In this document: piece by piece, positions 20,785 to 54,382 of the stretch
How positions within the stretch are numbered: the stretch's first letter is position 1
How the letters are laid out: each line of letters opens with the position of its first letter
Translations under genes and position numbers: made by a program
The notes under the pieces: generated by a model
The model's input: only the letters and a program-made list of their open reading frames with translations
Told to the model about the DNA's origin: nothing
The model's database searches: none
Source: an uncultured bacterium
GTDB taxonomy: Bacteria > Arandabacterota > Arandabacteria > Arandabacterales > Arandabacteraceae
Reading direction: 5' to 3'
NCBI GenBank assembly: GCA_964356335.1
Contig: CAYHHI010000013.1
Location: forward strand, 2,974 to 66,973
Length of the DNA stretch: 64,000 nucleotides

Positions 20785-20799
20785 ACCTCTCTCCCCGTG

Positions 20800-21588: not shown

Positions 21589-21725
21589 AGCAATATTGAA
21601 AGTATCTAACCCGAACGCGCTTTGTCAAACTAATTCTGCCTGGACTCTGGCGAACGAGCGCCGGAACTCAGAATGACGACCCCATGGTACTCGGCGGGGC
21701 CGCCCCAGACTGGCACAAGATCAGA

Positions 21726-28912: not shown

Positions 28913-31054
28913 CTACGTCCTCTTCACCTCTTCGAGGACGTACGCCTGAAGGATGTCACCCTCTCTCATATCGGTGAAGCCTTCAAGCCCAATGCCGCAC
29001 TCGTATCCCTGAGTGACCTGCCTGGCGTCGTCCTTAAAGCGCTTGAGTGAGGAGATCTTGCCTTCGAAGACCTTCTCGCCAACCCTCAACACTCTGACGA
29101 AGCAGTTCCTCGTCATCGTGCCTTCAGTCACATATGTGCCTGCTATCGTACCTACACGCTTTATCGCGAAGACCTTCCTGACTTCCGCGCTGCCCATTAC
29201 CTTCTCTTCGATCACGGGACCGAGCAGTCCCTCCATGGCAGCCTGGATGTCTTTGGTGACTTCGTAAATGATGTCGTAGTTTCTCACATCGACCTGTTCA
29301 CGTTTCGCTATCTCCCGGGCCTTCGGGAGTATGCCCACGTGGAAGCCGATGACGATTGCATCTGATGCCGCAGCCAGAAGAACGTCCGACTCGTTCACCG
29401 GGCCCACGCCCCTGTGAATCGTCTTGATCGTCACCTTATCCGAGCCGAGCTTCTGGAGCGCATCGCTCAAGGCCTCGACCGATCCATCCACATCTCCCTT
29501 GGTGACCACTCTCAATTCCTTGATCTCGCCGGTCTGGATCCTGGCATAAAGCTCCTGGAGGCTTATGTGTACCGTCTTGCGTAGATCTTTCTCGCGCTGG
29601 AGAAGCTGTCTCTTTGTCGCAATCTCTCGTGCCTCTCTATCGTCCCGTGTAACCATGAAGGAATCACCGGCCTGGGGAACACCCTGACACCCAAGGACTT
29701 CCACTGGCGACGAAGGATGAGCAAGATTCACGATCTTGCGGCGCTCGTTGAACATGGCCCGCACCTTCCCCGCCCATATGCCTCCGACGAAGGGGTCACC
29801 GAGGTTGAGCTCGCCCTTCTGGCTCAACATGGTTATCACTATGCCCCGGCCCTGTTCCACTCTTGACTCGATCACCACGCCGCTTGCTCTGCCTTCCTGC
29901 GGTGCCTTGAGATCCAGCATCTCAGCCTGCAAAAGGATCATCTCGAGCAAACGCTGGACCCCGTCACCCCTCTTGGCGGAGACAGGCACCATCAAGACAT
30001 TTCCACCCCATTCGTCGGGTGTGAGGCCATTGGATGCCAACTCATGCTTTATCCTGTCCACATTTGCATCGGGGAGATCAATCTTGTTGATGGCGACAAT
30101 GATGGGGACCTCGGCAGCTTTTGCATGGTCAATCGCCTCAACGGTCTGAGGCATGACGCGTTCGTTTGCAGCGACCACAAGCACCACGATATCTGTGGCC
30201 TGGGCGCCTCGCGCCCTCATCGCCGTGAAGGCCTCGTGGCCCGGCGTATCGAGAAAGGTTATCTTCCCTCCGGTGGTCTCGACCTCGTAAGCTCCAATGT
30301 GCTGGGTTATGCCGCCTGACTCGCCGGCCACAACGTTGCTTCTCCTGACATAATCGAGGAGCGAGGTCTTGCCATGGTCAACATGGCCCATTATGGTCAC
30401 AACGGGATGCCTCCGGGTCTCAGGTACTTCCTCCTCTTCCCCGATTTCTGCCCCGTATTCCTTTATGAACTCGACCCCATAGTCAAACTCGTCCGCAATG
30501 GCCTCTATGGTATCGGCATCAAGCCTCTGGTTTATGGTTGCCATCACTCCCATTCTCATGCAGCAAGTGACAACCTCAGCGGACTTGACCCCCAGCACCG
30601 AAGCGAGCTCCCCCACGGAGATGAATTCTGTGACTCTGATCACCTTTGCTTCTTCTTCCGCAAGTTCCTCTTCTTGCGCAGATTTCCTCTTCCGCCGCTT
30701 CGCTCTCTTGCCTTCGATCTCCGCAAGGGTCTTCCTCACGCTTTCCTTAACCGATTTTTCATTTACGCGACGCCTGAGACCCACACGTTTGGGAGGTTCA
30801 ACCACCTTCTCTTGAGGCTTCGGCTTGACTTCGACTTCTTCGACAATCAGTTTCTTCCGTGCCTCTTCCCTCTTGACTTCCTCTTTCTTGAGTCTGAGCT
30901 TCTCGCGCAGGGCTACTATCGTCTCATCCTCGATGGCGCTCATGTGGCTCTTTACCTTGAGGCCCATACCTCTCAGCATTTCAAGGAGAGCTTCACTTGA
31001 GAGGTTGAAATCTCGTGCAATTTGATAGATTCGCTTCCTAGCCAATGGCACCAC
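28913..31054 (-). CDS. infB: translation initiation factor IF-2
   Basis: 713 aa, G domain ([24 protein letters not shown]), a charged N-terminal region and C-terminal beta-barrels. Confidence 0.95.
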
Positions 31055-31361
31055 CTCCGCTCACTCGATCGGATACGTGCCTCTCGCCCGTTCCACCACC
31101 ACCGCCCTCTGTTTCCATTATCACTTGCCTGAGCGCGGCAAACGCCGAATCACACGGTCGCATTGCCACAAGCCCTTTAAGGTTCCTCCGTTTAAGTGCC
31201 TTCTCGAGACAAGCCGCACTCCTACAGAGATAGAGGCCGCGTCCGCTCGCATTGCCGAGCCCGATGCCCTTGTCGCTTATGACGAAGCGCACAAGGCGAC
31301 CCTTGGGAAACCTCTCAAAACAACCCACGCATGTTCTTATGGCAATGTGCTCGCCCCTCAA
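31038..31361 (-). CDS. ylxR: YlxR/RnpM family (DUF448) RNA-binding protein
   Basis: RTCVGCFERFPKGRLVRFV...GRGLYLC; sits between nusA and infB. Confidence 0.7.
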   Translation of the reverse strand: MRGEHIAIRTCVGCFERFPKGRLVRFVISDKGIGLGNASGRGLYLCRSAACLEKALKRRNLKGLVAMRPCDSAFAALRQVIMETEGGGGGTGERHVSDRVSGGGAIG

Positions 31362-32716
31362 GATGCTTCTCCCTTCGACTCCGTCCCCTTTGCCTCGGCC
31401 TCCCCGGGCGCGGCCTTGCCCGCCTCACCCTCCTCGGCCGGCTTCGCGGCTCTGAACTTCTCCCTGATCTCCGCGATCCTCGACTTGGCAACCTCAATCA
31501 CTGCCCTGGCCTTCTCCTCGCCAACGCCCTCAAGGCCCGCGAGCTCACCCACATCGGCCTTGCTGACATCCTCAGCGGTCTCATATCCGGCCCCGACAAG
31601 CTTAGCGCGGACTTCATCATCCAGACCGCCGAGCTCCGAAACAGGTATCCTCGCCATCTTCCGAAACTCCAGCCGCTCGGCATACTGGGACTCGTTTATC
31701 AGGTCTATCCTGAGATTGGTCAGTTTGGCAGCAAGTCTCGCATTCTGCCCACCCTTACCGATAGCAAGCGAAAGCTGATCATCAGATACCACGACTGTGG
31801 CCCTGTTATCTTTATCATCCATCTCAGCATGCACAACCTTCGCAGGGCTCAGGGCTCTTGTGACGAACACCATCGAATCGTCGTTCCAGAGAACCACGTC
31901 GATCCGCTCCCCACCCAGCTCGCGCACCACTGACTGGACTCTCGATCCTTTCATGCCCACGCAGGCCCCTACTGCATCAACCTTATCATCCTTTGAGAAG
32001 ACCGCGATCTTGGATCTTGAGCCGGGCTCCCTGGCAACAGCCTTTATCTCGACGATGCCGCTATCGATCTCCGGCACTTCCATCGTGAAGAGCTTCTTCA
32101 TGAAATCGCTGTGGCTTCGCGAGAGCACGATCTGCGGACCCTTTGCGGCCCTGGAAACTTCTATGATATAGGCCTTGATGCTATTGCCTTGCCTGAATTG
32201 CTCTCTCGGTATCTGTTCTCGCTGGAGCAGAATGGCTTCGGTCTTGCCGACATTGACGATTATGTTGCCCCTGTCAATCTGCTGGACGCCCCCGGTTACA
32301 ACCTCCCCTATTCGCTTCTCATACTCCCTGAAGACTCTGTCTCGCTCCGCCTCCCGGATTCTCTGGATCACGACCTGCTTGGCAGCCTGGATTGCGTTTC
32401 GCCCGAAGTGTTCGGGTGGAATCTCGATCCTTACTTCCTGGCCGACTGCCGCATCCGGCGAGATCTCAAGGGCTTCGGCGAGGCAGATCTGCGTCTGAGG
32501 GTCTTCGACCTTCTCAACCACGTTCTTGGAACAGTACACCTGAAGACGCCCAAGATTCTCGTCTATCTCGGCCACAATGTTGCTCGAGGCCCCGTACTTC
32601 TTTCTTGCAGCGCTGACCAAAGCAGCCTGAAGCGTCTCGATGATGAGGTTCTCATCAACATCCTTTTCCCTAGCAATCTGCTTCAGTGCCTGGATGATTT
32701 CGAAGCTCATGTCCAT
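31358..32716 (-). CDS. nusA: transcription termination/antitermination factor NusA
   Basis: N-terminal domain, S1, two KH domains and a C-terminal acidic repeat region; 452 aa. Confidence 0.95.
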   Translation of the reverse strand: MDMSFEIIQALKQIAREKDVDENLIIETLQAALVSAARKKYGASSNIVAEIDENLGRLQVYCSKNVVEKVEDPQTQICLAEALEISPDAAVGQEVRIEIPPEHFGRNAIQAAKQVVIQRIREAERDRVFREYEKRIGEVVTGGVQQIDRGNIIVNVGKTEAILLQREQIPREQFRQGNSIKAYIIEVSRAAKGPQIVLSRSHSDFMKKLFTMEVPEIDSGIVEIKAVAREPGSRSKIAVFSKDDKVDAVGACVGMKGSRVQSVVRELGGERIDVVLWNDDSMVFVTRALSPAKVVHAEMDDKDNRATVVVSDDQLSLAIGKGGQNARLAAKLTNLRIDLINESQYAERLEFRKMARIPVSELGGLDDEVRAKLVGAGYETAEDVSKADVGELAGLEGVGEEKARAVIEVAKSRIAEIREKFRAAKPAEEGEAGKAAPGEAEAKGTESKGEAS

Positions 32717-32731
32717 ACGTACAGCCTTCTC

Positions 32732-33208
32732 TCAGATCGAAAGGTTAGCGCCCAGGATATCGGCAAACCGGACGCTTACTTCGGCTCTACCCTCCGGCTC
32801 AAGCACAAGCACATCGTCCTTGAAGCTTCCTATCGTGCCAACCAGATCCGCCACATACCCACCACCTTCTCTGAACCTGATCTTGGCTTTCCTCCCTACG
32901 AAACACTGAAAATCCTCTCTGGTCCTAAGTTTCCTCTCGGCACCGGGAGAGGAGACCTCCAAATAGTACTTGCACGCGAGGAGATCATGCTGGTCGAGCT
33001 CGGCGCTGAGGGCTTTACTCGCCCTTGCGCAATCATCAAGCGTGACGCCACCCCTTCGGTCAATGAACACCCTTAAGGTCCGCCTCCCATGCGACCCCAC
33101 CAGAACCACTTCCACCACGTGATAGCCGAGCCGATCCAATACAGGCAAAACGATATTTCTGATTTTTTCCAGTAACTCGGCCCCGCCCACCGGAGAGCCT
33201 CCCTGCAC
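32732..33208 (-). CDS. rimP: ribosome maturation factor RimP
   Basis: LLEKIRNIVLPVLDRLGYHVVEVVLVGSHGRRTLRVFIDR pattern; GTG start; leads the nusA-infB operon. Confidence 0.85.
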   Translation of the reverse strand: MQGGSPVGGAELLEKIRNIVLPVLDRLGYHVVEVVLVGSHGRRTLRVFIDRRGGVTLDDCARASKALSAELDQHDLLACKYYLEVSSPGAERKLRTREDFQCFVGRKAKIRFREGGGYVADLVGTIGSFKDDVLVLEPEGRAEVSVRFADILGANLSI

Positions 33209-33221
33209 ATAGAAACTTTAA

Positions 33222-33240
33222 GAGTGGGCTTTGCCCACTC
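33222..33240 (-). terminator. short stem-loop between the giant gene and rimP (candidate terminator/attenuator)
   Basis: GAGTGGGC (33222-33229) / GCCCACTC (33233-33240) is an 8-bp perfect stem with a 3-nt loop. On the minus strand it is followed by UUAAAGUUUCU. It lies 46 nt after the giant gene stop and 14 nt before the rimP start. Confidence 0.35.
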
Positions 33241-33285
33241 ATGGACAAACTTACAATAGGGCCGATTGGAATGCAAGCAAAAACA

Positions 33286-36200
33286 TTAGAAGCGGATGAG
33301 GACGGAAACGCTCAGACCAATGGTTCTCCAGGTCTGTTCGAGCTTGCGGTCGGTGGTCTGCTCGAAGCGTGCATCGGCGGAGCCTGTGACGCTGGTGCTG
33401 AAGCTATAGCTTGCTTTGGGACTGATGGTAAATGTCCTCGTGCTGCTGTCTATCCTGTTCTTGAACGAAGGTGTGGTGCCCACACGTGACTCGAAGGACA
33501 AGTCCAGAGATACTGTGAGGCTGCTCTTGAACTTCAATGTCCTGCCAGCGAGCGGGATGTACATGCCTTCCGGAGCGCTGAAGGAATGTCTCAGCGAGAA
33601 GTTAGCGGAATTTGAGACGAACTTCTTCTCGCTTCCAGTACCCTTAGTGTCCTCAGTGGTGTTACTGCTACGCCGGAGATTGAAGGTCGTCCGCACACCG
33701 TTCTTCCACGTTGCATCCCAGCCGATGACCGGCAGCCACTCCGACCGGTGCCCGCGATTGGTCTCTGTGGCACCCACGCCACTCGCCTGCCTCGACCGCT
33801 TGTAGCCCACCGTGATCGAGGAAGTCTTTACGGCTCCCCTGAAAAGCGGCAGATAGACCGTCGAAGAGATGTTGCCGGCAACATCAGGCCAGACGGTTTG
33901 CCTGTCAAAGGTTGTCGCACCGGCATAGGTCCTCGTTTTCTTGTCATGCTTGTACTTGGTGGTCAGGGAAACTGTCTCGACAGGCTTGAATTCCGTGGAA
34001 ACGTCGTAGCCGTCATTCCTCGTGATCTCATCAGTGGGCAGTCCGGCTCCGCCTGACGTTCCTGCGCCCGAGGGCCTCAGGATAGCGTCCTTATCCACCT
34101 GAGGATCTATTCCGAGTTGAAACCTCAAACCCGGCCGTTTCATAAGCTTGTTGTATCTGGAGCTTCTGTCAACGAAGTAGCCGACATCGATATCTGGAAT
34201 CATGGCAAGGACTCGCCTGTAAATGGGCACTCCGGTTGTATCGGCTCCCTTTTGCGGGGCAGACAAGAACGAAGAAGGCTGAAGCAGGAGATCAATGCTC
34301 GACCTGCTTGAGACGGATGCTCGTCTGACCCCTGGCGGATCATTCGCCGAGCGCACGGAAGGATCGGAATTCTCATCATAGTTGACGTCATAACTCACGG
34401 ATGGTTTGAGTATCTTGCCTATGGTAGGCCTCAGGGTGGCACCCGCTCTCTGGTTCCGATTGAGTTCCCATCCCAGACCGACGCTTGACAGTATCGGCAC
34501 CTGCTTGTTTTGATCGAGGTCCCGCATGGTCTTCAGGCTGTAGTCAGTCTCCAGCGAAGGACCGGTGAGAGGTTTGACCGAAATGGCAAAGTTACCTCTG
34601 ATCTCCCTCGTGTACTGGTTTTTCTTCATAATCTTCTGGCGCTTGTCGAACTCCTTTTCGGTCTTTGTCCAACCGGAAACGGCGAAATCCATACCTTCAG
34701 GAAAATAGGATATTGCATAGCCCCTGTAGATTCTCAGTGAATGGTTCCACCAGGGCTTGAAGGCGTAAGCAAGATTCCCATTGTAGCCGTTTGAGGCGGC
34801 ATCCGACTCGGGTGACTTTCCCTGCCTGCGTGCAAAGGACACCCTTCCGGAAAGGGCGTCGAAGGTAAGCTTCATGAGCAGGTTGTTCGATTTCTGCCTC
34901 CGAGAGAAGGCCAGACTGTAGTTGTTATCGACCGACGTTCGCTCCTCTTTTTTTCGCTGCTGCGGCGTCGTAAGAGCGACATCGGACCGGCTGCTCAGAG
35001 TGGGCAACGACCGGGCAGTGTGATAACCCACCGAGAACGGCAGGGACATCCCGAGTGGGGGAAGGAATCTGTCAAGTGAGGTGGATCCTGATAGGGAGAG
35101 ATCGGTATCATCAGATCCTCTTCTGGTGCCCCCGAGGTTCTGAAATTCGGTGTCGGTCTGCTTGAGATCGGCACTGACGCTCATCACATCCGACAAGGCC
35201 GCCCCCACCGAGATTCGCTTTGCAACCCCCATCTCACGGCGCACATCAGTCAGTCTCAGATCATCAAACCAGACTTCAACCGCAGTGTCGCTCGTTGGAG
35301 CTGTCCCGCGGTTCACCACACCCGCGCCGATCCGCGATACCCTCGTTATGGAAGGCTCACCATAGACTGCGATCCAGGTGGCTTCAGTCAGGGGCCTCTC
35401 CCTCCTCAAAACCGGCTTGCCATAGAGGGTGACCGTCGTCGTATCCATGCTTGTCTTGAGGTTGGTTATCTCATCAAGCTTCAACCGGACGTCACTCCAG
35501 CCAGGGGTCACCTTCATGCCGTATTCGTAGAAGTTGATACTGTCCGCACCTATCCTCAGGAAGAAGCTCAGATCTTCAGCGGATGCATTCGGGTCGCCAT
35601 GGACATAAAACGCGAGGGTATGGTAGAGGGTGTAGTCACCGGCATTTCCCGGCAAGGTCTTGTAAACCGACCCGCAGTTTCCCGCTTCGAGGTTCCGGAG
35701 GCCGAATACCAGCGACTGCTCCCGCTTCTTGTAGCCCTCAGGATCTGTACCGGGATCATAGGGTGGATCATAACTCGGGTCATCTCGCGTGTTCTTGGCT
35801 GATATTTCAAAGGACTCTCGGGGAAGCCGCTCGACGCGGGCCATGTCTTCCTTCCTGCGTATTCCCTCCTCGAGCCAACTCGCGCCCGAGATTTGCAGGT
35901 AGGCTAGCTGGAAGACTGAAGGTGTATCGACGCCGGTGAAGAAGAAGCGGACATATCTTATTGATTTCCAGCTGGGCGAGCCGCCGAGCGCGTCCGCATC
36001 GGCCAAAGGAATCATGTAGTGGCACCAATCCCCCGAACGCCCCACAATGTAAGTGGTGTCGGAGAGGTCAAAACCTAGTCTAAAGAGGACCTCGTCTTTG
36101 TCGAGGTTCCCATTACCGTCAATGTCTTCGGTATCGGGTACCAAATTGGGGTCGCCCTCGGTGCCGTTTATGTGGGAGTAGTCTCCTTCACTGTAAGACC

Positions 36201-38940
36201 AGTTGTCCTCATACTCCACCTGGTCGTCGCCTGGCTGGCCATCGGGTATGCCGTCAAGTCCCGTGTTCTCGTCTTCACTCAGCTTGCCGTCACTATCCTT
36301 GTCCTCGGTGTTAAGCGTGTCGGCCCAGGGATGGTAGAAGTTCTCGCTCACGGCACCAAGGTCAACGTACATCTTCCCCCTGTGGCCCTCCTTCTTCCTG
36401 AGCCAGACTTCGAGAAACCTGAGATCCGAGTAATCGCTTCCGGTCTTTGACACAAGCCGCTCAAGCCCCGACCACTGCTTGGCTGTGTCAGGATCCGGAG
36501 CAACCCAGCCATATGCGAACTTCCTGAAGTTGATTTCAAGAACCGGAATGAAGGCTTCCCCTGGACGGGACTCCGCCTCTGGGAAGAGATCCTGCTCCTT
36601 GACTTCCCTGTCCTTGACGTACCACCAGATCTTGCGGTTGTCCCTGTAGTAGAAATCTGTCGGGGGACTTGCGGGCACCCAGGCTTCCCGGATCAGCGAA
36701 AAAGACCTCAAGTCCCTCACTCCTTCCATATCATCTATGTAGACATCACGCTTGGTATTGGGATTGGGAAAACTTGCCGCCACTTCGGCTGAGATTGACA
36801 GTCTTGAGGGGCTTTGTGCCTGGACCATGGGAAGCGCATTGGTGATCGCGGTCATCCACTTCGGCTGGAATTCCAGCCGCGTATTGACGTCGCCGACCAT
36901 GATCTGAGAAGGTTCCTGGCCCAGCCTGGGCCGTTCCTCGGGGGATTTCTTGCTCTGGTAGATCCAGGCCGTACTCAAGTAGGACTGTTCCGAGAACTTG
37001 TAGGTGCCCTGGATGCCCAAAAGAGATTGCTGGGCTAAAGCGAGGAAGGGCACATATTGGTAATCTACGGTTATCTGTGCATCGGGACTCGCCGCTTCGT
37101 CGATCTTGAATCTTATCTGCCCCACGTCATAATAGATCTCATAGTCAACATTGCGCGTGAGCCGCCTTCCGTTGAGCGTTACGGTCTCGCTTCCCTCAAG
37201 GATATTGACATTGTTCAACTTGAATATGGTCTGCGGGGTGGAGAACCAGACCACCATATAGTACTTGCTGTTCTCGGGCTTGAGCTTCCTGGGATGAATG
37301 TCGTAAATATCGGGGTTTCCATCATCGAGAGTCTCCGGTCTGGCATCCATCAGCTGTATGTCGGGATCGAAGGGCCTGAGGTCTGGAAACAGGAGCAGCC
37401 CCAGCTCGCCGTTTACGGTTCCGCCGTCGGCATACCCGTCCGTGCGCCAGCCGTTTGCCGGGCTCGCTTTCACATTGCTCTCATCCTCAAGGTCTATCCC
37501 GAGAACCTTCGAATACTCATACTGCCGCTGGACGTCCTTGACATCTCCGCCCGGGTCCTTGCGGTAAATCTTCACCAAGACCTTCCCCTCGGAGACGTAG
37601 CTCGCGCCGAGCGAATAGACGTTCTTGCGCTCATACCTGAGGGTACCGCCCCAGAGTCCCTCCTTTTCTATCATGTCCGTCTCGGTCGGGCGTATCATCT
37701 TCAGCAAGCGCACGTTCTTGTCACCATACCCACCATACCCGCCCACCACCATGTCGCCCCACTTGTAAGTGACAGCCAGCGTATGCGCGGCATCGAGGGC
37801 TCTGAGGAGCGAGATCTCACCGGTACGCTGGTCTATCGCATAGTCTCTGTTACGCTCAAGGATGTCGAAGAAGCCGTGATAGGTCGAGTCCGCCCAGCCG
37901 GCGGAATCCGATGGCACCCTGTCAGGATCAAGCAAAGCATAAGCCTCGACCGCACCCTCACCGATGTTGTTATTGCCGTTGCCGTCATCCAGGTAAACTT
38001 CGACCTCGGTGACTTCAGGGCAGGGCTCGGGCGCAATCTTGCGGCAGTATTCAAGCCTCTCATAGGGATCAATCATGAAGAAGTATTTGTTCTTGACAAA
38101 GTCCATGTCTGAGAGTCTTACCGAATCTCGCTCAGCCGCTCCCACGAATCGCGCCCCGGCAGTTCTGCCTTCCTGCTTGCTGGCGATCACGGTCATATCC
38201 ATGGCCCCTAGCTTAGCAAGCACCTTGGCTCCGAAAAGACCCTGGTGCTGTTCGCTGTAGCCCACAAACTGGGAACCCGGCATGGACAGGTTGGTATTAC
38301 CCATTTCCACACTCTGCACGATCTCGTCGTCATCGCCCTTGTAATTGAGCTTTATGCGGTTCTCAAGGGGTGTTTCGACATCGCTATCGTGATGAACCAG
38401 TACGTTTATTTTCTCGCCCACGGTTCCCTTGAGGTCTATCCTGAGATGCTGCTTCATATTGAGCTGAGGAAACTTAGATGGTCTTCCGTATTCGGTCAAA
38501 GGTTGATTTACCCTGTATCTTGTCTGGCCGCCGAAGGTGATCTGTTCGCTGCCGGTGACGCTCAAGTTTGCTCCCTGCCCGATCACTCGGCCTATGGTCT
38601 TGGGGAACTTGACCGGTATGTCTATGCTGCTGAAGTCTCGAAGGGACATCGCATGTTCCTCAAAGACCCTGCCCGAGCCGGCTTTGATCCAATTCTCCCT
38701 GAGAGCGCCGTTGAAATCCTGCTCAAGCACCGGCTTCTGCATGAATTCGGGGAAGGCGAACCGCGGGCCGAGATTTGTACCGCTCGAAGGAAACCTGAGC
38801 GAGACTTCCGATGTGGGGCCGGCCGAGAGGCTGTCAGAGGACGTTCCGAAGCCAAGGGAGTCAGCGCCCTCGGAGACGCTTACGTATCCGAAGACCAGAA
38901 GCCCAAAGATTATGGCCCAGTAACCATCATGTGCTCTCAT
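33286..38940 (-). CDS. giant (1884 aa) secreted outer-membrane protein with Asp-rich Ca-binding-like repeats and a C-terminal beta-barrel; possibly SprA/Sov-like (T9SS translocon family), unverified
   Basis: Signal peptide MRAHDGYWAIIFGLLVFGYVSVSEGA; Asp/Gly-rich segment DKDSDGKLSEDENTGLDGIPDGQPGDDQ...DIDGNGNLDKDE; alternating beta-strand-like C-terminal ~600 aa ending ...GLSVSVLIRF (terminal Phe, OMP signature). One uninterrupted ORF. Confidence 0.8.
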   Translation of the reverse strand: MRAHDGYWAIIFGLLVFGYVSVSEGADSLGFGTSSDSLSAGPTSEVSLRFPSSGTNLGPRFAFPEFMQKPVLEQDFNGALRENWIKAGSGRVFEEHAMSLRDFSSIDIPVKFPKTIGRVIGQGANLSVTGSEQITFGGQTRYRVNQPLTEYGRPSKFPQLNMKQHLRIDLKGTVGEKINVLVHHDSDVETPLENRIKLNYKGDDDEIVQSVEMGNTNLSMPGSQFVGYSEQHQGLFGAKVLAKLGAMDMTVIASKQEGRTAGARFVGAAERDSVRLSDMDFVKNKYFFMIDPYERLEYCRKIAPEPCPEVTEVEVYLDDGNGNNNIGEGAVEAYALLDPDRVPSDSAGWADSTYHGFFDILERNRDYAIDQRTGEISLLRALDAAHTLAVTYKWGDMVVGGYGGYGDKNVRLLKMIRPTETDMIEKEGLWGGTLRYERKNVYSLGASYVSEGKVLVKIYRKDPGGDVKDVQRQYEYSKVLGIDLEDESNVKASPANGWRTDGYADGGTVNGELGLLLFPDLRPFDPDIQLMDARPETLDDGNPDIYDIHPRKLKPENSKYYMVVWFSTPQTIFKLNNVNILEGSETVTLNGRRLTRNVDYEIYYDVGQIRFKIDEAASPDAQITVDYQYVPFLALAQQSLLGIQGTYKFSEQSYLSTAWIYQSKKSPEERPRLGQEPSQIMVGDVNTRLEFQPKWMTAITNALPMVQAQSPSRLSISAEVAASFPNPNTKRDVYIDDMEGVRDLRSFSLIREAWVPASPPTDFYYRDNRKIWWYVKDREVKEQDLFPEAESRPGEAFIPVLEINFRKFAYGWVAPDPDTAKQWSGLERLVSKTGSDYSDLRFLEVWLRKKEGHRGKMYVDLGAVSENFYHPWADTLNTEDKDSDGKLSEDENTGLDGIPDGQPGDDQVEYEDNWSYSEGDYSHINGTEGDPNLVPDTEDIDGNGNLDKDEVLFRLGFDLSDTTYIVGRSGDWCHYMIPLADADALGGSPSWKSIRYVRFFFTGVDTPSVFQLAYLQISGASWLEEGIRRKEDMARVERLPRESFEISAKNTRDDPSYDPPYDPGTDPEGYKKREQSLVFGLRNLEAGNCGSVYKTLPGNAGDYTLYHTLAFYVHGDPNASAEDLSFFLRIGADSINFYEYGMKVTPGWSDVRLKLDEITNLKTSMDTTTVTLYGKPVLRRERPLTEATWIAVYGEPSITRVSRIGAGVVNRGTAPTSDTAVEVWFDDLRLTDVRREMGVAKRISVGAALSDVMSVSADLKQTDTEFQNLGGTRRGSDDTDLSLSGSTSLDRFLPPLGMSLPFSVGYHTARSLPTLSSRSDVALTTPQQRKKEERTSVDNNYSLAFSRRQKSNNLLMKLTFDALSGRVSFARRQGKSPESDAASNGYNGNLAYAFKPWWNHSLRIYRGYAISYFPEGMDFAVSGWTKTEKEFDKRQKIMKKNQYTREIRGNFAISVKPLTGPSLETDYSLKTMRDLDQNKQVPILSSVGLGWELNRNQRAGATLRPTIGKILKPSVSYDVNYDENSDPSVRSANDPPGVRRASVSSRSSIDLLLQPSSFLSAPQKGADTTGVPIYRRVLAMIPDIDVGYFVDRSSRYNKLMKRPGLRFQLGIDPQVDKDAILRPSGAGTSGGAGLPTDEITRNDGYDVSTEFKPVETVSLTTKYKHDKKTRTYAGATTFDRQTVWPDVAGNISSTVYLPLFRGAVKTSSITVGYKRSRQASGVGATETNRGHRSEWLPVIGWDATWKNGVRTTFNLRRSSNTTEDTKGTGSEKKFVSNSANFSLRHSFSAPEGMYIPLAGRTLKFKSSLTVSLDLSFESRVGTTPSFKNRIDSSTRTFTISPKASYSFSTSVTGSADARFEQTTDRKLEQTWRTIGLSVSVLIRF

Positions 38941-38989: not shown

Positions 38990-39004
38990 GCAACTTTTGT
39001 GCCA
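38990..39004 (-). promoter_or_regulatory. sigma-54 (-24/-12) promoter upstream of the giant OMP gene
   Basis: The minus strand reads TGGCAC-aaaag-TTGC, a perfect consensus (forward GCAA 38990-38993, N5, GTGCCA 38999-39004), ~50 nt upstream of the ATG at 38940. It shares 13/14 nt (GCAAnTTTTGTGCC) with the site at 6847-6860. Confidence 0.55.
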
Positions 39005-39140
39005 TGCCTGGGCTCAGAACCTCCCTCTCGTCCACACCCGCAAATAGCACAGGAATAATAGGCTTGCCCTTGCCGGACCCCTGTAGTAACTTGGCTCTGA
39101 AAGATTTGCGGTGACCCCATTTAGGTACGTTGGTGTACAA

Positions 39141-40466
39141 ATGAAGACACTTCATAAATACATCCTCACCCAGCAGGTAGCACCTTTCCTTTTCGGCATT
39201 TTCATCATTATCTTCATTCTTGTCCTGGATTTTCTTTACAAGAACCTCGAAATGCTCATCGGCAAAGGCGTGCCGATAGCCATCTCAACAGAGCTCCTGG
39301 TCCTGAGCCTCGGCTGGATGATCGTGATGGCCGTCCCCATGGCGGTCCTGATAGGCACGCTGATCTCCTTCATGCGCCTTGCTTCCGACAACGAGATCGT
39401 GGCCATGAGGACAAGCGGGATAAGCCTGTTCGCGATTGCCAAGCCCCTCCTTGTGGCCTCCTTGCTGCTGTCCTTCGGGATGATACCCGTCCACAACTAC
39501 CTCGTTCCCGAAACCAATCATAGATTAGCAAATCTGCTTGTATCAATACACAGAAAAAAGCCTGCGCTCCAGCTCAGGGACGGCGTTTTCATCAATGACA
39601 TAAAGGGCATCAGTATCCTTGCTGAGAAGGTCAGGGGCAACCGGATTGAAGGAGTAACAATTTCGAAGCTGGTCGAGGACAAACCTGCACAGACCATCAG
39701 GGCCGAGCGAGGGGATGTACATTTCGCCGAAGATGGCAACACGCTTGTCCTCAAGCTTTATGACGGTGAGATCCACGATGTTGACCAGAAGGATCCAAAG
39801 CGTTACTTGAGGCTCAAGTTCGCCGAGCACACGCTTAACATCCCGGATGCAGGGGGCAAGCTCATGATGATAGAGCGGGAATACCGCGGCGAACGCGAGA
39901 TGAGCATAAGTTCCCTGAGAGGTGAGGTTGCCAAGATCAAACGAAAGATGGCGGATGGGAATGGACAGGTGAGAGAGATCATCGAGAAGGCTGCCCAGGA
40001 ACTCCCTGAGATCAGGAAGGCTGACTTGTCAGATGAAACGCGGCCTAAGTCGAGTGGCAAGATCGTTGCCCTCTTGACCTCGACGCAGGATAAGCTTCAG
40101 AGTCTCAAGAACCAGGAGATGGGCTACAGGAGAAGTATGAGAGCGTACTCAGTTGAGATACATAAGAAGATTGCGATTTCATTCGCCTGTGCCGTGTTTG
40201 TGCTTCTCGGAGTGCCGATAGGCGCCAGAACCAAGGAAGGCGGGACCGGTGCGGGCATGGTCGGGAGCATCTCGGTGTTTGCGATCTACTATGCTTTCCT
40301 CACTGCAGGCGAGAAACTCGCAGACCGAGGTTTCGTGCCGCCCTTCCTGTCCATGTGGGCCGCCAATATACTGCTGGGCACAATCGGTCTGTGGCTCTTC
40401 ATAAGAGCCAACAGGGAGCTTCCCTTCATCCCCCATAAGATCCGCGCCCTGGTAGGGAGAACCTGA
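39141..40466 (+). CDS. lptF: LptF/LptG-family LPS export permease (YjgP/YjgQ)
   Basis: Start MKTLHKYILTQQVAPFLFG (the track ORF begins 10 codons earlier), six TM helices around a periplasmic beta-jellyroll insert; 442 aa. Confidence 0.8.
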   Translation: MKTLHKYILTQQVAPFLFGIFIIIFILVLDFLYKNLEMLIGKGVPIAISTELLVLSLGWMIVMAVPMAVLIGTLISFMRLASDNEIVAMRTSGISLFAIAKPLLVASLLLSFGMIPVHNYLVPETNHRLANLLVSIHRKKPALQLRDGVFINDIKGISILAEKVRGNRIEGVTISKLVEDKPAQTIRAERGDVHFAEDGNTLVLKLYDGEIHDVDQKDPKRYLRLKFAEHTLNIPDAGGKLMMIEREYRGEREMSISSLRGEVAKIKRKMADGNGQVREIIEKAAQELPEIRKADLSDETRPKSSGKIVALLTSTQDKLQSLKNQEMGYRRSMRAYSVEIHKKIAISFACAVFVLLGVPIGARTKEGGTGAGMVGSISVFAIYYAFLTAGEKLADRGFVPPFLSMWAANILLGTIGLWLFIRANRELPFIPHKIRALVGRT

Positions 40467-40467
40467 T

Positions 40468-41556
40468 TTGAGAACCCTGGACAGGTATGTTCTCGCCGAG
40501 TTTACCAGGATGATATTGATAGGCGCGCTGGCCTTTATCGCGGTCTTTGTCACCCTGGATATGGTGGAGAACGTCGATGATTTTGTGGATAACGACGTCG
40601 GCGTCCTTACTGTGCTCAAGTACTACGCCTTCCAGATCCCTTACATTTTCACACTCACCTTACCTGTGGCGGTCCTCATATCTTCACTTTTCACGATCGG
40701 CCAGATGGCAAGGCTTAACGAACTGGTAGCGATGAAGGCGTCCGGCATTCGCTTCGCAAGATCAATCGTGCCGCTGGCTGCGGCAGGCCTCGTGGCTAGC
40801 CTGGTGGCGCTGAGTGTTGCCGAGTTTGTCGAGCCCGGTGCGGATGCTATTGTGAGGAGCATCAAGAACAATGAGATCAGGAAATCCTCGGCTAAGACCG
40901 AGCCAAGAATAAGGTCCAACGTAACCTATCGAGGCAAGGCCGGCCTTTTTTACTTCGCACCTGAGTATGATACTAGACTCAATACCATGAAGGATCTTGT
41001 CGTTGAACAATCACAAGCAGGGAAACTGATCTTCCGCCTCAACGCGACTGAGGCAGTCTGGAAGGATTCGATCTGGATACTATCGGAAGCCTGGGTGAGA
41101 TGGTTCTCAGAGGATGGTGAAGTGGAACGCGAGACTTACATAACCCAGGGCTCCCTCCCGATGGTCAAGGATTACCCCAGAGACATTCTGCGAGAGCAGC
41201 GAAACCCTGAAGAGATGAGCTACAGGGAACTGGCGCGCCTGGTGCGGAAGATAGATGAGAGCGGAGGGGATTCGGCGAAGTATCGCGTAGGCCTCGCCAT
41301 GAAGATGTCGTTCCCTTTTGCCAATCTTATAGTTGTGCTCATCGGCTCACCTCTTTCCGCGCGGCTCCGCAGGGGTGGCCTGGCTGTGGGCGTGGGCACA
41401 GGACTTGGGCTATGCTTTGTCTATTACGGCTTCGTGAGGGTCGGTCAGGCACTGGGCGATCATTCGGTGCTGCCGCCACTTGTCGCGGCATGGGCAGGCA
41501 ACGTCTTCTTCGCCGTCTGCGGAATCGTCCTGATACTCAGGGCTGAGAAGCGCTAA
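40468..41556 (+). CDS. lptG: LptF/LptG-family LPS export permease (second paralog)
   Basis: MRTLDRYVLAEFTRMILIGALAFIAVFV, same architecture, 362 aa; starts 1 nt after the lptF stop. Confidence 0.8.
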   Translation: MRTLDRYVLAEFTRMILIGALAFIAVFVTLDMVENVDDFVDNDVGVLTVLKYYAFQIPYIFTLTLPVAVLISSLFTIGQMARLNELVAMKASGIRFARSIVPLAAAGLVASLVALSVAEFVEPGADAIVRSIKNNEIRKSSAKTEPRIRSNVTYRGKAGLFYFAPEYDTRLNTMKDLVVEQSQAGKLIFRLNATEAVWKDSIWILSEAWVRWFSEDGEVERETYITQGSLPMVKDYPRDILREQRNPEEMSYRELARLVRKIDESGGDSAKYRVGLAMKMSFPFANLIVVLIGSPLSARLRRGGLAVGVGTGLGLCFVYYGFVRVGQALGDHSVLPPLVAAWAGNVFFAVCGIVLILRAEKR

Positions 41557-45064: not shown

Positions 45065-46111
45065 CTAATCTTCCATTCCACCCTGTTTGAGCAAGGTCTT
45101 GATCCTGTCGATCGTTTTTATCGGGGTCGGATCAACACCCCTGGCAAGCGCAAGATAGACACTTCCATAATCACCCAGTAATATCAGTGAAAACATCCTG
45201 CTTAGCAAGCTGGATCCGCTCGTCCAGAACTCTCCGCAAAAAAAGGCATTGTCCCCGATGACGTCCTTAATCAGGGCAAGGCTCCGGGCGGCCTGCGGAT
45301 GCTCATCCGAAGTCCTCAGCACGATAACTCCCGCGGTTATGCCTCGGGCTTCGACTTCCCAGCCCATGATCTCATTGTGGTTCGCCTCGGGGACGACGCT
45401 TGTAAACGCCAACGTCTTGGCATTCTCGCAGAACTGGTTCTTCCACCTGAGGCCTACGGCATCCAGGTCGGTGCCACAGTAGATTAGGGGTATGCGCGAT
45501 ACGAGATCCCTTGCCAGGCGCACCGCCGGATTGGCATCCGTCTCGTGTCGGACATAGACCTTGGTCAGACTCTCCAGGGTATCGGCGCATTCGCACAGCT
45601 CATCTTCAGGATGCGCGCACAGACCTGCCTTCCAGGCAAGAGCCAGCAGGGTCGCGAAGCAGTAGCCAAGACCGGCTCTCGGCGGAAACCCCATGGGGAT
45701 CTTCACATACGGTATCCCTCGCAGGCGTGCTTCCTCGAGCAGGTGGCCATCAGATGTTATGCACACCACAAGGGCGTTTCTTGAAATGGCTTCGCGGAAG
45801 CATGAGAGTGCTTCCTCGGTATTGCCTGAGTAAGAGGAGATGACAACCAGCGAACCCTCGCCGACGAAGCGCGGCAGGCCGTAATCCCTTAAGACAAAGA
45901 CCGGAATGCCTGAGTGCCTCGAAAGATAGATCCTCAGGAGGTCCCCGCCTATGGCAGAGGCTCCCATGCCCGCAATCGCGAGGGTTTTCGGCTCGATCCT
46001 CTCCAGGGATCGCCATGCTTCTTCGCCAAGCCTGAAGCCCAGTCGAAGCTGCTCAGGAAGGCTTCGAATCTTCCCCAACATGTCAGATGAGTCCAAGGTG
46101 AGACTCCTCAT
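45065..46111 (-). CDS. bifunctional phosphoglucose/phosphomannose isomerase (archaeal-type PGI/PMI, SIS domain)
   Basis: 348 aa, a SIS fold with SYSGNTEE; the architecture is typical of TIGR02128-type PGI/PMI. Confidence 0.7.
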   Translation of the reverse strand: MRSLTLDSSDMLGKIRSLPEQLRLGFRLGEEAWRSLERIEPKTLAIAGMGASAIGGDLLRIYLSRHSGIPVFVLRDYGLPRFVGEGSLVVISSYSGNTEEALSCFREAISRNALVVCITSDGHLLEEARLRGIPYVKIPMGFPPRAGLGYCFATLLALAWKAGLCAHPEDELCECADTLESLTKVYVRHETDANPAVRLARDLVSRIPLIYCGTDLDAVGLRWKNQFCENAKTLAFTSVVPEANHNEIMGWEVEARGITAGVIVLRTSDEHPQAARSLALIKDVIGDNAFFCGEFWTSGSSLLSRMFSLILLGDYGSVYLALARGVDPTPIKTIDRIKTLLKQGGMED

Positions 46112-47871
46112 AGAAGCATTTCAGGACGGTCTTTGCCAATGATCTCCATGGCGAGCCTCCTTGTCCGGGCCGGGTCGACGGTGGTGAGGGCCTCTTCCGC
46201 AACTCTCCGGGCATCCGCATAGCTCACCGAGCGCACCATTTCCTTTACCTCGGGCACCACATAAGGGCTGGCGCTCAACTCGTCAATGCCCATTCCCAGC
46301 AACACCAACGCGCAGACGAGGTCACTGGACATCTCACCGCACAGGCCGACCCAGATGCCGGCCTCTTTTGCCTTGCAGATGGTCTCACTGATAAAGCGGA
46401 GCACGCCGAGATGTAAAGGCTCATAGAGATAGGCAACCTTCTCGTTGCCGCGGTCGGCGGCAAGCGCATACTGGATCAGGTCATTGGAACCTATGCTGAA
46501 GAAGTCAACATGCTGAGCGAGCTCCCGCGCGATCATCACTGCGGCCGGCGTCTCGATCATTATTCCGACCTCGGAGTCAGCGTCGAACTTATGGCCTTCG
46601 CCCGCAAGTTCTCGCTTTGTTTCATCGAGGACCTCGATCGCCTGAATGATCTCTTCAAGATTGGAAATCATGGGATACATTATCTTCACATTGCCGTGGA
46701 CACTTGCCCTCAGGATCGCCCGCAGCTGCGTCTTGAAGATGTCCTTCCTCGCGAGACAGAACCGAATGCCGCGCCAGCCGAGATATGGGTTCATCTCTTT
46801 CGGGCTCTCGAATTCGGAAAGAAACTTATCCCCACCCAGGTCCATGGTCCTTATTATGACGGGGTCGGGTTTCACCTTTGAGGCCACGGCCTCATAAATC
46901 CTGAGCTGTTCGTCCTCGCTGGGAAGGCCTTCCCTTCCAATGTAAATGAACTCCGTTCTGTAGAGACCGATGCCATGCGCCCCGTGTTCTAGAACCGAAT
47001 CGACCTCTTCATGAGACTCTATGTTAGCCGAGAGCATTATTGAATGGCCATCGATCGTGACCGCCGGCAGGTCCCTGAAACGGAGAAGCCCCGTGGTCAC
47101 ACTGGCGAAATGCTGAAGCTCATGGCTGTATCTGTCGATGGTTTCAGGCGAAGGCGAAACGATCACCCTTCCCCTGTTCCCGTCAACGATGACGAAGTCG
47201 TCGTCCTGCACTCTCACCGTCACGTTGTTCAAGCCAACCACGGCGGGGATCTCGAGGGACCTGGCCATTATTGCCGTGTGAGACGTCCTGCCCCCGACGT
47301 CAGTAGCAAATGCCTTCACCTTTTCTCTGCGCATCTGGGCAGTGTCAGCGGGCGAAAGGTCGTGCGCGATGACCACCACATCGGAGCCTAGATTGGACAG
47401 GTCATTGGCATCCCTGTTTGTTCCCGAAAGGTTCGAAAGCACCCTTATCCTGACGTCCCTTATGTCCGCGGCCCTGTCCTTTATGTAAACGTCCCCCTTT
47501 GCCCAGAGCAGTCTCTCATGTCTTGAGAGAACGGCGCTCAGGGCAAATTCAGCGTTGTTGCCACTGCGCACCCCCGCAATCACCTCATCGATTGACATCT
47601 TGTCTTCGAGTATCATTACGTGAGCATCGAAGATCCTTGCGTAGGACTCGCCCATCTCGTGCGCAACCTTATTTCTAACGTCCAGAAGCTGTGCCTTCGT
47701 GACCCCAAGCGCCCCCATAAGCCTCTCGATCTCACCGTCAATCTCATCGGGTGAGAGCCGCCGCCTGGGCACCCTCATGTCGGTCCGTGCAAGGACAAGC
47801 GCATTGCCCATTGCAATGCCCGGTGAGGCAGCAACGCCGTTTGCCACACCCTCCACCTTCTTGCCTGTCAA
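46108..47871 (-). CDS. ptsI: phosphoenolpyruvate-protein phosphotransferase (PTS Enzyme I)
   Basis: 587 aa; phosphohistidine domain (GGRTSHTAIMARS...) and a PEP-utilising C-terminal domain. Confidence 0.9.
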   Translation of the reverse strand: MTGKKVEGVANGVAASPGIAMGNALVLARTDMRVPRRRLSPDEIDGEIERLMGALGVTKAQLLDVRNKVAHEMGESYARIFDAHVMILEDKMSIDEVIAGVRSGNNAEFALSAVLSRHERLLWAKGDVYIKDRAADIRDVRIRVLSNLSGTNRDANDLSNLGSDVVVIAHDLSPADTAQMRREKVKAFATDVGGRTSHTAIMARSLEIPAVVGLNNVTVRVQDDDFVIVDGNRGRVIVSPSPETIDRYSHELQHFASVTTGLLRFRDLPAVTIDGHSIMLSANIESHEEVDSVLEHGAHGIGLYRTEFIYIGREGLPSEDEQLRIYEAVASKVKPDPVIIRTMDLGGDKFLSEFESPKEMNPYLGWRGIRFCLARKDIFKTQLRAILRASVHGNVKIMYPMISNLEEIIQAIEVLDETKRELAGEGHKFDADSEVGIMIETPAAVMIARELAQHVDFFSIGSNDLIQYALAADRGNEKVAYLYEPLHLGVLRFISETICKAKEAGIWVGLCGEMSSDLVCALVLLGMGIDELSASPYVVPEVKEMVRSVSYADARRVAEEALTTVDPARTRRLAMEIIGKDRPEMLL

Positions 47872-47873
47872 GT

Positions 47874-48143
47874 CTACTCCCCTTCGTTGAACTTTGCTTC
47901 GATGAGCCCAATGACGATCATCAAGGCGTCTTCTTCATCCGGTCCATCTGCTATCACGGTGAGCTCAGTCCCGATTGCAGCCTCAAGCCCAAGGACCCCC
48001 ATTATGCTTTTGGCGTCAACCTTGATGTCATTCTTGCGGATGTGAACATCCGATCGAAAGGCAGACGCCGCCTGCACAAGCAAAGCAGCGGCCCTCAGGT
48101 GAAGGCCCATCTTATTTGTTATAGTCACCTTACGCTCGACCAT
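47874..48143 (-). CDS. ptsH: phosphocarrier protein HPr
   Basis: MVERKVTITNKMGLHLRAAALLVQ with His15, and KSIMGVLGL with Ser46. The ATG at 48141-48143 is preceded by GAGGT, so the real start is there; the track ORF extends 52 codons upstream. Confidence 0.85.
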   Translation of the reverse strand: MVERKVTITNKMGLHLRAAALLVQAASAFRSDVHIRKNDIKVDAKSIMGVLGLEAAIGTELTVIADGPDEEDALMIVIGLIEAKFNEGE

Positions 48144-48341
48144 ACGTACCTCATAATGCCGAGGCCTCGCAGAAAAGTCAACCCACCATTCTCGGCCGGC
48201 CGCGACAGGCTTTCTGCGGGACCAGTTGGAACCGGGCGTTGGCTGGCGTTCGCGGGACGATCTTCGGGCCCCCCAGGGACCACCAAGCCCTCTTTTCACC
48301 CAGGGTCGAACCTGGCCCGAGGAGAGACCGAGGCGGTGTCG

Positions 48342-49316
48342 CTACTCGATATCTCTCGGAACGAAACCCACCTTGCCGGCCTGCTTCAGCCGCTCGACCA
48401 GCTTCTCGCGCAGACTGTCAGCGGCGTCGTAGCCATAGACACCAAGGATGTGGCTGAGAGCAACAACTTCGACTATGGCGCTCACACTCTTGCCGGCAAC
48501 CAGCGGTACTGCCATCGAGGGGATTCTGACGCCGAGTATCTCCACTTGCTTGCACTCAAGCCCGGATCTGTCGTAAGAAAGCCCGTCCTCACCCCATTCC
48601 TTGAGGTTGACCTCTATTTCGATGCGCTTCTGCCTGCGCAGGGCCCTTATGCCGAAGATGCTGCCTATGTCCACGAGACCGATGCCTCTCACCTCGACAT
48701 AGTTCTGAAGAGGCTCAGAGCTCCTGCCAACCAGTATACCAGGAGGCGTGGCTATCACGCGAACCAGGTCATCGGCCACGAGTCTGTGTCCGCGTTCAAC
48801 AAGGTCCAGGGCGCATTCGCTCTTGCCGATACCGCTCTTGCCTCTGAGCAATATCCCGACGCCATAGACATCAACCAGAGTCCCGTTGATACGGGTCTCG
48901 GGTGCAAGCTCAACGAGCAGATAATCGCTGAGATGCTGGACCGTTTCGGTCGGTGAAAGCGGAGTGGAGAAGAACGGCACCCGTCTCTCGACTGCGATCT
49001 CGATCAAGGGTTCAGGTAAAGCCATTGCCTGCGTGACGATCACACACGGTATCTTCTTTGTCAGAAGATCACGGAACGATCTCATACGGGCCTCGGCGTC
49101 GAGCTTTCCGAGGTAGAGCACCTCAGCCTTGCCAAGAATCTGAATCAGCTCGGAGGCAAAGCCCTCGCCGAAGCCGGCGAGCATGAGCCCGGGCCGGCCC
49201 ATATCGGCGTGCGTGACCGCAATGTCAAGGTCTATGCCCTCGGTGACGAGCTCGAGCTTGAGCTCCTCCCTGCAGTCAGCGAAAATCTTGGACACGAGTA
49301 TATGTTTTGAGTTCAC
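48342..49316 (-). CDS. hprK: HPr kinase/phosphorylase
   Basis: Walker A GKSGIGKSECALDLVERGHRLVADD and an HprK C-terminal domain; 324 aa. Confidence 0.9.
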   Translation of the reverse strand: MNSKHILVSKIFADCREELKLELVTEGIDLDIAVTHADMGRPGLMLAGFGEGFASELIQILGKAEVLYLGKLDAEARMRSFRDLLTKKIPCVIVTQAMALPEPLIEIAVERRVPFFSTPLSPTETVQHLSDYLLVELAPETRINGTLVDVYGVGILLRGKSGIGKSECALDLVERGHRLVADDLVRVIATPPGILVGRSSEPLQNYVEVRGIGLVDIGSIFGIRALRRQKRIEIEVNLKEWGEDGLSYDRSGLECKQVEILGVRIPSMAVPLVAGKSVSAIVEVVALSHILGVYGYDAADSLREKLVERLKQAGKVGFVPRDIE

Positions 49317-49327
49317 CGCTTACTCCC

Positions 49328-49690
49328 CTAGAACTCCTCCGCAAGGTCATCCGTGTCTTCAGGCTCAGTGCTGGCGACCGGTGCCGCTCCCGGCCGGCGG
49401 ACCCTTTTGTGCCTCATCTTGTCCTTCAACTTCATCACCTGGCGCTCCATCTTATCTGCGGCACCGTCGAGGGCCGCGTAGAGGTCTTCCGCACTACTTT
49501 CCGAGAAAAAGTCGAAACCCTGTCCGTGAAGGGTTATCTCGAACCTGTATATGAAACGCTCCACCCGGAGGATAACATGGCAGTCCAGCACTCCGTCAAA
49601 GTACCTTTTGAGCTTGATGAGCCGCTTCTCGATATGGTCCCTCATGCTATCCGTCAGTTCCAATGACTTCGAAGTTACTTCTATGCGCAT
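49328..49690 (-). CDS. hpf: ribosome hibernation promoting factor (HPF/RaiA, short form)
   Basis: MRIEVTSKSLELTDSMRDHIEKRLIKLKRYFD...; conserved position downstream of rpoN. Confidence 0.85.
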   Translation of the reverse strand: MRIEVTSKSLELTDSMRDHIEKRLIKLKRYFDGVLDCHVILRVERFIYRFEITLHGQGFDFFSESSAEDLYAALDGAADKMERQVMKLKDKMRHKRVRRPGAAPVASTEPEDTDDLAEEF

Positions 49691-50580: not shown

Positions 50581-50582
50581 CG

Positions 50583-52001: not shown

Positions 52002-52027
52002 CGCTTAAACCCCCGAATCAAACTGAT

Positions 52028-54221: not shown

Positions 54222-54382
54222 CGGTAGGCAAGATCGAACATTTCCTGGCTCACACCAAGATGTTAGATGAGCAGAGACCTCATGTCAAGCATGTTCTGTG
54301 CCAGATTCGCGCGATTGAGCGAGATTCGGATGTTCCGCGCGTGACGAGAACGTGTCCGCCTGAAGTCGGCCATTCTGCCTGA

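Follow-up and report, generated by a model that had tools for sequence, protein, structure and literature searches.

A probable SprA/Sov-type translocon of compact size, preceded by a conserved sigma-54-type promoter element, in an uncultured Eisenbacteria-like bacterium

A 64-kb stretch of DNA from an uncultured bacterium (contig CAYHHI010000013.1; hereafter the window, by which we mean the whole 64,000 nucleotides analysed) contains a single open reading frame (ORF) for a protein of 1884 amino acids (aa), and the question that this locus raises is whether so large a protein is the outer-membrane (OM) translocon of a type 9 secretion system (T9SS), a giant β-barrel of some other kind, or an artefact of assembly. 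A first-pass annotation, made from the sequence before any database was searched, had proposed a T9SS translocon of the SprA/Sov type. On the basis of profile searches, structural modelling and comparison with related loci, we conclude that the gene product is very probably the SprA/Sov translocon of an uncultured member of the Fibrobacteres-Chlorobi-Bacteroidetes (FCB) superphylum, related to metagenome-assembled genomes (MAGs) that carry the label Candidatus Eisenbacteria.

Identity, fold and export signals of the protein

The gene, here called sprA, begins with ATG and is read without interruption to its stop, as the first-pass annotation had described it, and its GC content (0.54-0.57) is the same as that of the adjoining genes. 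The gene and its parts are the following:

33286..38940, minus strand: sprA/sov orthologue, predicted T9SS OM translocon (intact ORF, hidden Markov models (HMMs), family profile, AlphaFold2 (AF2) models and Foldseek)
38866..38940, minus strand: probable Sec signal peptide, residues 1 to ~25 (sequence only)
36055..36327, minus strand: Asp/Gly-rich block, residues ~872-962, family-wide, with two EF-hand-like loops (motif scan and alignment columns)
34996..36030, minus strand: Pfam SprA_N match, residues 971-1315, within which the jelly-roll or carbohydrate-binding-module (CBM)-like cap domains probably lie (Pfam scan for the match)
33295..35280, minus strand: C-terminal β-rich region, residues 1221-1882, most of the barrel wall, for which 27 long strands are predicted (AF2 model of residues 701-1884, strands assigned by DSSP)
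33289..33309, minus strand: C-terminal strand VSVLIRF with a terminal Phe, resembling a β-signal (sequence; the Phe is kept in lineage relatives)

The assignment to the SprA family is carried in the first place by curated models. TIGR04189, the NCBIfam equivalog for Sov/SprA, scored 521.4 bits, where the curated cut-off is 200, and the Pfam model SprA_N (PF14349) 78 bits, where it is 27; no further Pfam family was found at E ≤ 1. A phmmer search of all PDB sequences retrieved the SprA of Flavobacterium johnsoniae alone (6h3i/6h3j), in three colinear stretches with E = 6e-31. When the query and 39 homologues were combined into a family profile of 40 sequences, the match to 6h3i_A became a single stretch that runs from end to end, with a score of 1154 bits and with positions 56-1921 of 1946 aligned to residues 31-2375 of 2403. 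The homologues detected at E ≤ 1e-10 number 303, and some of these, from Gemmatimonadota, Krumholzibacteria, Ignavibacteria and unclassified MAGs, are labelled "cell surface protein SprA". The comparison with SprA and LptD/OstA models that the first-pass annotation had recommended favours SprA, and it returned no LptD family at E ≤ 1.

Structural modelling led to the same family. The protein was modelled with AF2 in two overlapping parts, residues 701-1884 and 24-1150, which were built on 50-sequence alignments and reached a mean predicted local distance difference test (pLDDT) score of 84.8 and 78.3, respectively. In Foldseek searches of the PDB with either part, four SprA entries, among them 8gl8_A, 8gl6_A and 6h3i_A, stood at the top, with E = 1e-53 and a query TM-score (TMq) of 0.54 for residues 701-1884, and E = 7e-54 and a TMq of 0.45 for residues 24-1150; the first match outside SprA had an E-value of 2.6e-5 or 4e-5 for the two parts. 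Secondary matches of both models are to folds of the CBM11/CBM30 type, and these probably belong to the SprA_N region. The long β-rich C-terminal region ending in LIRF, from which the first-pass annotation had deduced a barrel, and for which it had suggested structure prediction, is present in the model: the last ~660 residues contain 27 long strands, predicted to be antiparallel, to which DSSP adds about six long strands in residues 124-277 and some four to six in residues 638-808. In these part models the strand totals would be in keeping with a barrel of 36 strands, the number described for SprA (PMC10994853).

Two other accounts of so long an ORF have to be set against its reading as SprA. 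One would make it a different giant OM barrel, of the LptD/OstA, BamA/TamA or TonB-dependent/SusC-like kind, or an adhesin with a barrel anchor, and it could appeal to the neighbouring lptF and lptG genes, to a β-rich C-terminus that ends in Phe, and to weak Foldseek matches to SusC, LptD and TonB-dependent receptors. These matches, however, have E-values no better than 2.8e-4 and TM-scores of 0.13-0.18 (for LptD structures, E ≥ 2e-3 and a TM-score of ~0.13), very far from the SprA values given above, and neither Pfam nor NCBIfam scans at E ≤ 1 brought up an LptD, BamA or TonB-dependent-receptor family. The LptD, BamA and TonB-dependent-receptor readings were rejected on both HMM and fold evidence, in agreement with the first-pass preference for SprA over LptD or BamA, and any such barrel is hardly credible. 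The other account, that the ORF results from an assembly error or frameshift, as the first-pass annotation had itself raised, or is a decaying pseudogene, is just as hard to believe and was likewise rejected. The frame is unbroken, about 30 homologues of 1818-2048 aa and 52-73% identity are full-length and colinear with it, a near-identical copy of 1882 aa is present on an independent Joint Genome Institute (JGI) contig, and the GC content equals that of the flanks; nothing was found in favour of an artefact.

With the protein taken as SprA, its two ends are of the kind that would direct it to the OM. The N-terminus reads MRAHDGY, then WAIIFGLLVFGYVSV, then SEG/AD, so that a charged start is followed by a hydrophobic stretch of 15 residues (MRAHDGYWAIIFGLLVFGYVSVSEG/AD), and this segment is probably a Sec signal peptide, as had been annotated; the SprA of a relative, L001, starts with a similar hydrophobic segment. 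The final residues conform to [IL][RK]F, an ending common to the lineage relatives of the window SprA. Both the N-terminal hydrophobic segment and the terminal VLIRF are thus kept in relatives, and together they point to OM targeting.

The Asp/Gly-rich block had been annotated as a calcium-binding-like segment at 35500-36300. It exists, but it is narrower, lying at the top of that range only, and it belongs to the SprA family as such and is not an added module. It is conserved across the 40 homologues, Bacteroidota-type sequences included, with the consensus TED..DG.L...EDTGLDG ... INGTE.N....PDTEDLNG.G.LD, and residues E879, D880, G894, D896, D912, N925, D936, E938 and D939 are invariant or nearly so. 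Within it are two canonical 12-residue EF-hand-like loops, DKDSDGKLSEDE (nucleotides (nt) 36268-36303) and DIDGNGNLDKDE (nt 36091-36126), which, given their EF-hand-like spacing, can reasonably be supposed to bind calcium.

Compact size and lineage

SprA of F. johnsoniae (PDB 6h3i, 6h3j, 8gl6 and 8gl8) is a T9SS translocon that forms a capped barrel of 36 strands with a lateral opening. The window protein has in common with it the TIGR04189 and SprA_N models, colinearity over residues 31-2375 and the Asp/Gly-rich block, which in the shared form reads TED..DG...EDxGLDG...INGTE...PDTEDLNGNG, and F. johnsoniae SprA is the best and the sole strong structural match of both modelled parts. The two proteins differ in sequence (identity is ~23%) and in length (1884 versus 2403 aa). 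The window SprA ends in ...LIRF, whereas the Bacteroidota-type homologues examined do not; it comes from another phylum-level lineage, its partners were not observed, and its gene has a sigma-54-type promoter element in front.

The length deficit with respect to Bacteroidota-type SprA, about 500 residues, is scattered over many blocks when the proteins are compared block by block. The largest deficits fall at residues 1-100, 1550-1600 and 1650-1700, and the last two are inter-strand loops in the AF2 model. The shortfall thus reflects the shortening of many inter-strand loops, and no SprA domain is missing from the window protein. Compact forms are common in the family: among 1.84 billion cluster representatives searched, 1252 are related at E ≤ 1e-3, 447 of them at E ≤ 1e-30, and a length of 1800-2100 aa is frequent among the closest; metagenomes contain hundreds of forms of this size. 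The SprA proteins of Gemmatimonadota and Krumholzibacteria (Krumholzibacteriota), which are 28-33% identical to that of the window, have a similarly compact size of ~1945-2160 aa, and an Ignavibacteria homologue is ~25% identical; these homologues show SprA to be distributed across the FCB superphylum. Sov of Porphyromonas gingivalis (PG0809/PGN_0832) is another member of the family, and is set beside the window protein through the name of TIGR04189, "T9SS outer membrane translocon Sov/SprA", and not by sequence comparison; the same role may be presumed on the strength of that name. A compact SprA shows which parts of the translocon are dispensable loops. The SprA of L001 (MAG M3-30_Bin_374; 61% identical) has an additional N-terminal repeat after its signal peptide, encoded at 9761-10000 of that locus (GPVEPRPGDS.. 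twice), which the window SprA lacks.

The nearest SprA homologues come from MAGs and metagenomes labelled simply as uncultured "bacterium", one of them near-identical and the following ones at 73-52% identity, after which Gemmatimonadota and Krumholzibacteria appear at 33-28%. The polynucleotide phosphorylase (PNPase) encoded in the window is 70% identical to that of a Candidatus Eisenbacteria MAG, 64% to that of Latescibacteria and 60-61% to those of Zixibacteria, and an Eisenbacteria-labelled MAG has a SprA of 1879 aa, after which the genes stand in the order of the window as far as pnp and further. From these PNPase identities and this gene order it follows that the host belongs to the FCB superphylum and is Eisenbacteria-like. 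The near-identical copy belongs to locus L003 (JGI 3300035659, contig Ga0373628_0002002), where the whole region is near-identical, with a few single-nucleotide differences in the spacer and a SprA of 1882 aa, shorter by 2 aa; since this contig is independent, the organism has been sampled at least twice.

The gene order around sprA extends over ~25 kb as hprK-ptsH-ptsI-...-metK-ahcY, lptG-lptF (on the opposite strand), sprA-rimP-nusA-ylxR-infB-...-pnp. It is kept from hprK to pnp in relatives with 100, 73, 55 and 53% SprA identity and is not kept in the Gemmatimonadota relative. A functional link of sprA to lptFG or to the rimP operon was considered and set aside, because the whole order is lineage-wide and adjacency is then no sign of such a link.

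SprA has been called "FCB-specific" and is reported as missing from one FCB phylum alone, Chlorobiota (PMC12611786), and a T9SS is held to be possible in several FCB phyla other than Bacteroidota (PMC11285876). In the literature searched, Eisenbacteria and the T9SS are nowhere mentioned together. The window thus adds a clear SprA orthologue for a candidate phylum that the literature searched had not linked to type 9 secretion, and it supports the view of the translocon as a trait of the whole FCB superphylum and not of Bacteroidota alone. This is mainly an annotation result, and the understanding of the system is unchanged by it.

Probable promoter of sprA, proposed mechanism and the question of partners

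The spacer upstream of sprA holds the following element, which the first-pass annotation had recognised as a consensus sigma-54 promoter and which is strengthened by comparison:

38990..39004, minus strand: sigma-54 (-24/-12) element TGGCAC-N5-TTGC, TGGCACAAAAGTTGC, 50 nt before the ATG (motif scan and conservation)

An exact match to TGGCAY-N5-TTGC occurs once in the window, both strands taken together, where 0.23 would be expected by chance. In six loci from five distinct relatives (L001, L003, L004, L005, L006 and L008) the sole exact match is again found immediately upstream of sprA and on its strand. The relatives that keep the element have SprA identities of 53-73%, and the spacer sequence flanking it has diverged past easy alignment. 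The window encodes sigma-54 itself (rpoN, 50583-52001) and a bacterial enhancer-binding protein (bEBP) of TPR-GAF-AAA+-HTH architecture (7074-10157); nothing ties this bEBP to sprA, and a binding site for an activator was not found upstream. Judging from the motif and its position, transcription of sprA in the Eisenbacteria-like lineage is probably sigma-54-dependent.

The literature searched contains no report of a sigma-54-dependent sprA. A precedent within the FCB group is the remFG-sprCDBF operon of Flavobacterium psychrophilum, a gliding and T9SS-cargo operon that likewise has a sigma-54 promoter, although it encodes an adhesin and its carrier and not the translocon (PMC9723704). In P. 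gingivalis, T9SS genes are described as controlled by PorXY and the extracytoplasmic function (ECF) sigma factor SigP (PMC4800418), in contrast to the sigma-54-type element found here. The conserved promoter suggests a regulation of the T9SS unlike the PorXY-SigP route of Porphyromonas.

If one mismatch is allowed, the window contains 6 sigma-54 matches where 4.5 are expected, which is not above chance, and the placement of three of them is nevertheless suggestive. These lie on the minus strand at 6847-6861, 15948-15962 and 54289-54303, with CGGCAC-N5-TTGC in two cases and TGGCAC-N5-ATGC in one, and each falls between genes, immediately before one that is itself on the minus strand. The genes so preceded encode an RpoS/RpoD-like sigma factor (5806-6759, a gene that closely follows that of the bEBP), a Na/Pi-cotransporter-PhoU fusion (13797-15848) and, at the head of the lptC-lptB-rpoN cluster, a lipid A acyltransferase.

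A mechanism can be outlined by analogy with F. johnsoniae SprA. The product of sprA would be exported by Sec and inserted into the OM by the β-barrel assembly machinery (BAM), there to form a very large single-chain barrel of about 36 strands, which would be capped on the outside of the cell and open laterally, so that cargo tagged with a T9SS C-terminal domain (CTD) could exit bound to a carrier such as PorV. Transcription would most likely start from the sigma-54 promoter, and production of the translocon would in that case depend on RpoN and on an enhancer-binding activator. The broader proposition, that the translocon gene of this lineage is not constitutive and is gated by sigma-54 together with an activator, and that the translocon itself is a streamlined form of ~1.9 kaa with short loops, seems to us evenly poised between true and false; were it true, the lineage would produce its secretion pore when a signal calls for it, and would provide a smaller natural SprA for structural work.

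Several observations weigh against the view that the window protein is a SprA translocon serving a sigma-54-controlled T9SS. Its identity to Bacteroidota SprA is ~23%; the barrel was modelled as two overlapping parts (TMq 0.45-0.55), for which reason the figure of ~36 strands is an estimate, and the models did not display closure, cap or lateral opening of the barrel; and sigma-54 dependence is deduced from a conserved sequence motif. Moreover, the window, in which ~55 ORFs were scanned, contains no PorV/PorP-family carrier, Plug, PPI, SprE/PorW, GldKLMN/PorKLMN, PorU, PorZ or CTD (TIGR04183/PF18962) cargo, just as the first-pass annotation had remarked that no other T9SS components were visible, and the syntenic ~25-kb loci of relatives are also without T9SS components or CTD cargo. 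A working T9SS in this organism is therefore putative.

That neither the window nor the syntenic loci yielded partners or CTD cargo might be explained if a barrel of the SprA family had been repurposed as a general large OM channel or export pore that acts without the canonical T9SS partners and cargo. Such a change of role would also suit a protein ~500 aa shorter than characterised SprA, whose gene sits in conserved order among envelope and housekeeping genes (lptFG and the rimP operon). T9SS genes are, however, normally dispersed around genomes, so that the lack of partners within 64 kb is no evidence against a T9SS and tells little in favour of repurposing. The TIGR04189 score lies beyond an equivalog-level cut-off, the protein is colinear with SprA from end to end, and the sprA gene of the Gemmatimonadota relative adjoins Por_Secre_tail cargo genes, all of which argue for the translocon role. 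We therefore consider repurposing improbable, and that the compact SprA functions without canonical T9SS partners is less likely, indeed very improbable. The reading as a SprA/Sov T9SS translocon is retained.

The Gemmatimonadota locus just mentioned (CP070758.1; L007, 1-4738) encodes two large Por_Secre_tail (T9SS CTD) proteins less than 10 kb from sprA, one of them a β-helix of 2038 aa, and SprA and cargo accordingly co-occur outside Bacteroidota. It differs from the window in having these CTD-cargo genes nearby and in having neither the sigma-54 element nor the rimP operon.

The sprA-rimP spacer and the neighbouring genes

The genes on either side of sprA are those of the first-pass annotation, as confirmed by Pfam matches and gene calls: rimP-nusA-ylxR-infB lie downstream on the same strand, and lptF and lptG are divergent on the upstream side. 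These genes and the features of the two spacers are:

33246..33280, minus strand: promoter-like conserved blocks just past the sprA stop, TTGCTTGC ... TATTGTAAGTTTG, candidate promoter of the rimP operon (six-locus alignment)
33222..33240, minus strand: hairpin or perfect palindrome GAGTGGGC-AAA-GCCCACTC, with an 8-bp GC-rich stem and a 3-nt loop, followed by TTAAAGTTT (folding, six loci)
28913..33208, minus strand: rimP (probable start GTG at 33190), nusA, ylxR and infB, a housekeeping operon (Pfam; L003 gene calls)
39054..39059, plus strand: AATAAT, likely -10 box of an lptFG promoter (invariant in six loci; sigma-70-like match)
39111..41556, plus strand: lptF and lptG (Pfam LptF_LptG, 270 and 265 bits)

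The spacer between sprA and rimP has a mean identity of 72% over six loci, which is unusually high for non-coding DNA of genomes so distant. Among its conserved blocks, TAAGTTTG fits TAnnTTTG, the sigma-A box quoted for flavobacteria (PMC9723704), and the blocks may be the promoter of the rimP operon. The hairpin that follows has a folding energy of -14.6 kcal/mol (z = -2.95 with respect to shuffled sequences); its stem is kept in all six loci, and the succeeding TTAAAGTTT in all except L001. Changes in the stem across the six loci comprise one G-C to G-U replacement and the loss of the innermost pair in two loci, and because compensatory double changes are absent, the element may equally be a hairpin in RNA or a palindrome to which a protein binds.

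The first-pass annotation had described a short hairpin that separates sprA from rimP. The hairpin is there and is conserved, but its role may be a different one. The scan for terminators did not flag it, since its T-tract is interrupted, and being downstream of the promoter-like blocks it may belong to the leader of the rimP operon and not be simply a terminator of sprA. If the blocks are indeed the rimP-operon promoter, the hairpin would stand at the extreme 5' end of the rimP transcript, where it could act as a stabiliser of the leader or as an attenuator, and in addition as a weak sprA terminator. The essential rimP-nusA-infB operon is preceded by a conserved promoter-like region and a hairpin of its own. 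Downstream of infB, on the strand of sprA, follow genes for DUF503, rbfA, a DHH phosphoesterase, truB, ribF, rpsO and pnp.

Elsewhere in the window, an Rfam scan at gathering thresholds gave no match, and four ORFs match neither Pfam nor NCBIfam: 1368-1793 (plus strand, 141 aa), 10174-10500 (minus strand, 108 aa), 20122-21042 (plus strand, 306 aa) and 21344-21676 (plus strand, 110 aa).

On the upstream side of sprA, the likely -10 box of lptFG, which appears as ATTATT on the sprA strand, is invariant in the sprA-lptF spacer across the six loci and is preceded by a conserved CTTGCC. The lptF ORF spans 39111-40466 on the plus strand, and the ATG at 39141 is probably its true start, with a gene call of 441 aa in the near-identical L003. 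LptF is long, with 441-451 aa as compared to the 353 positions of the Pfam profile, which implies an insertion of ~80-90 residues relative to typical LptF/LptG. Further along, a cluster of proteobacterial style at 46108-54221 on the minus strand comprises genes for a lipid A acyltransferase, lptC, lptB, rpoN, hpf (sigma-54 modulation protein), HPr kinase, HPr and enzyme I, and is kept in the loci of the relatives.

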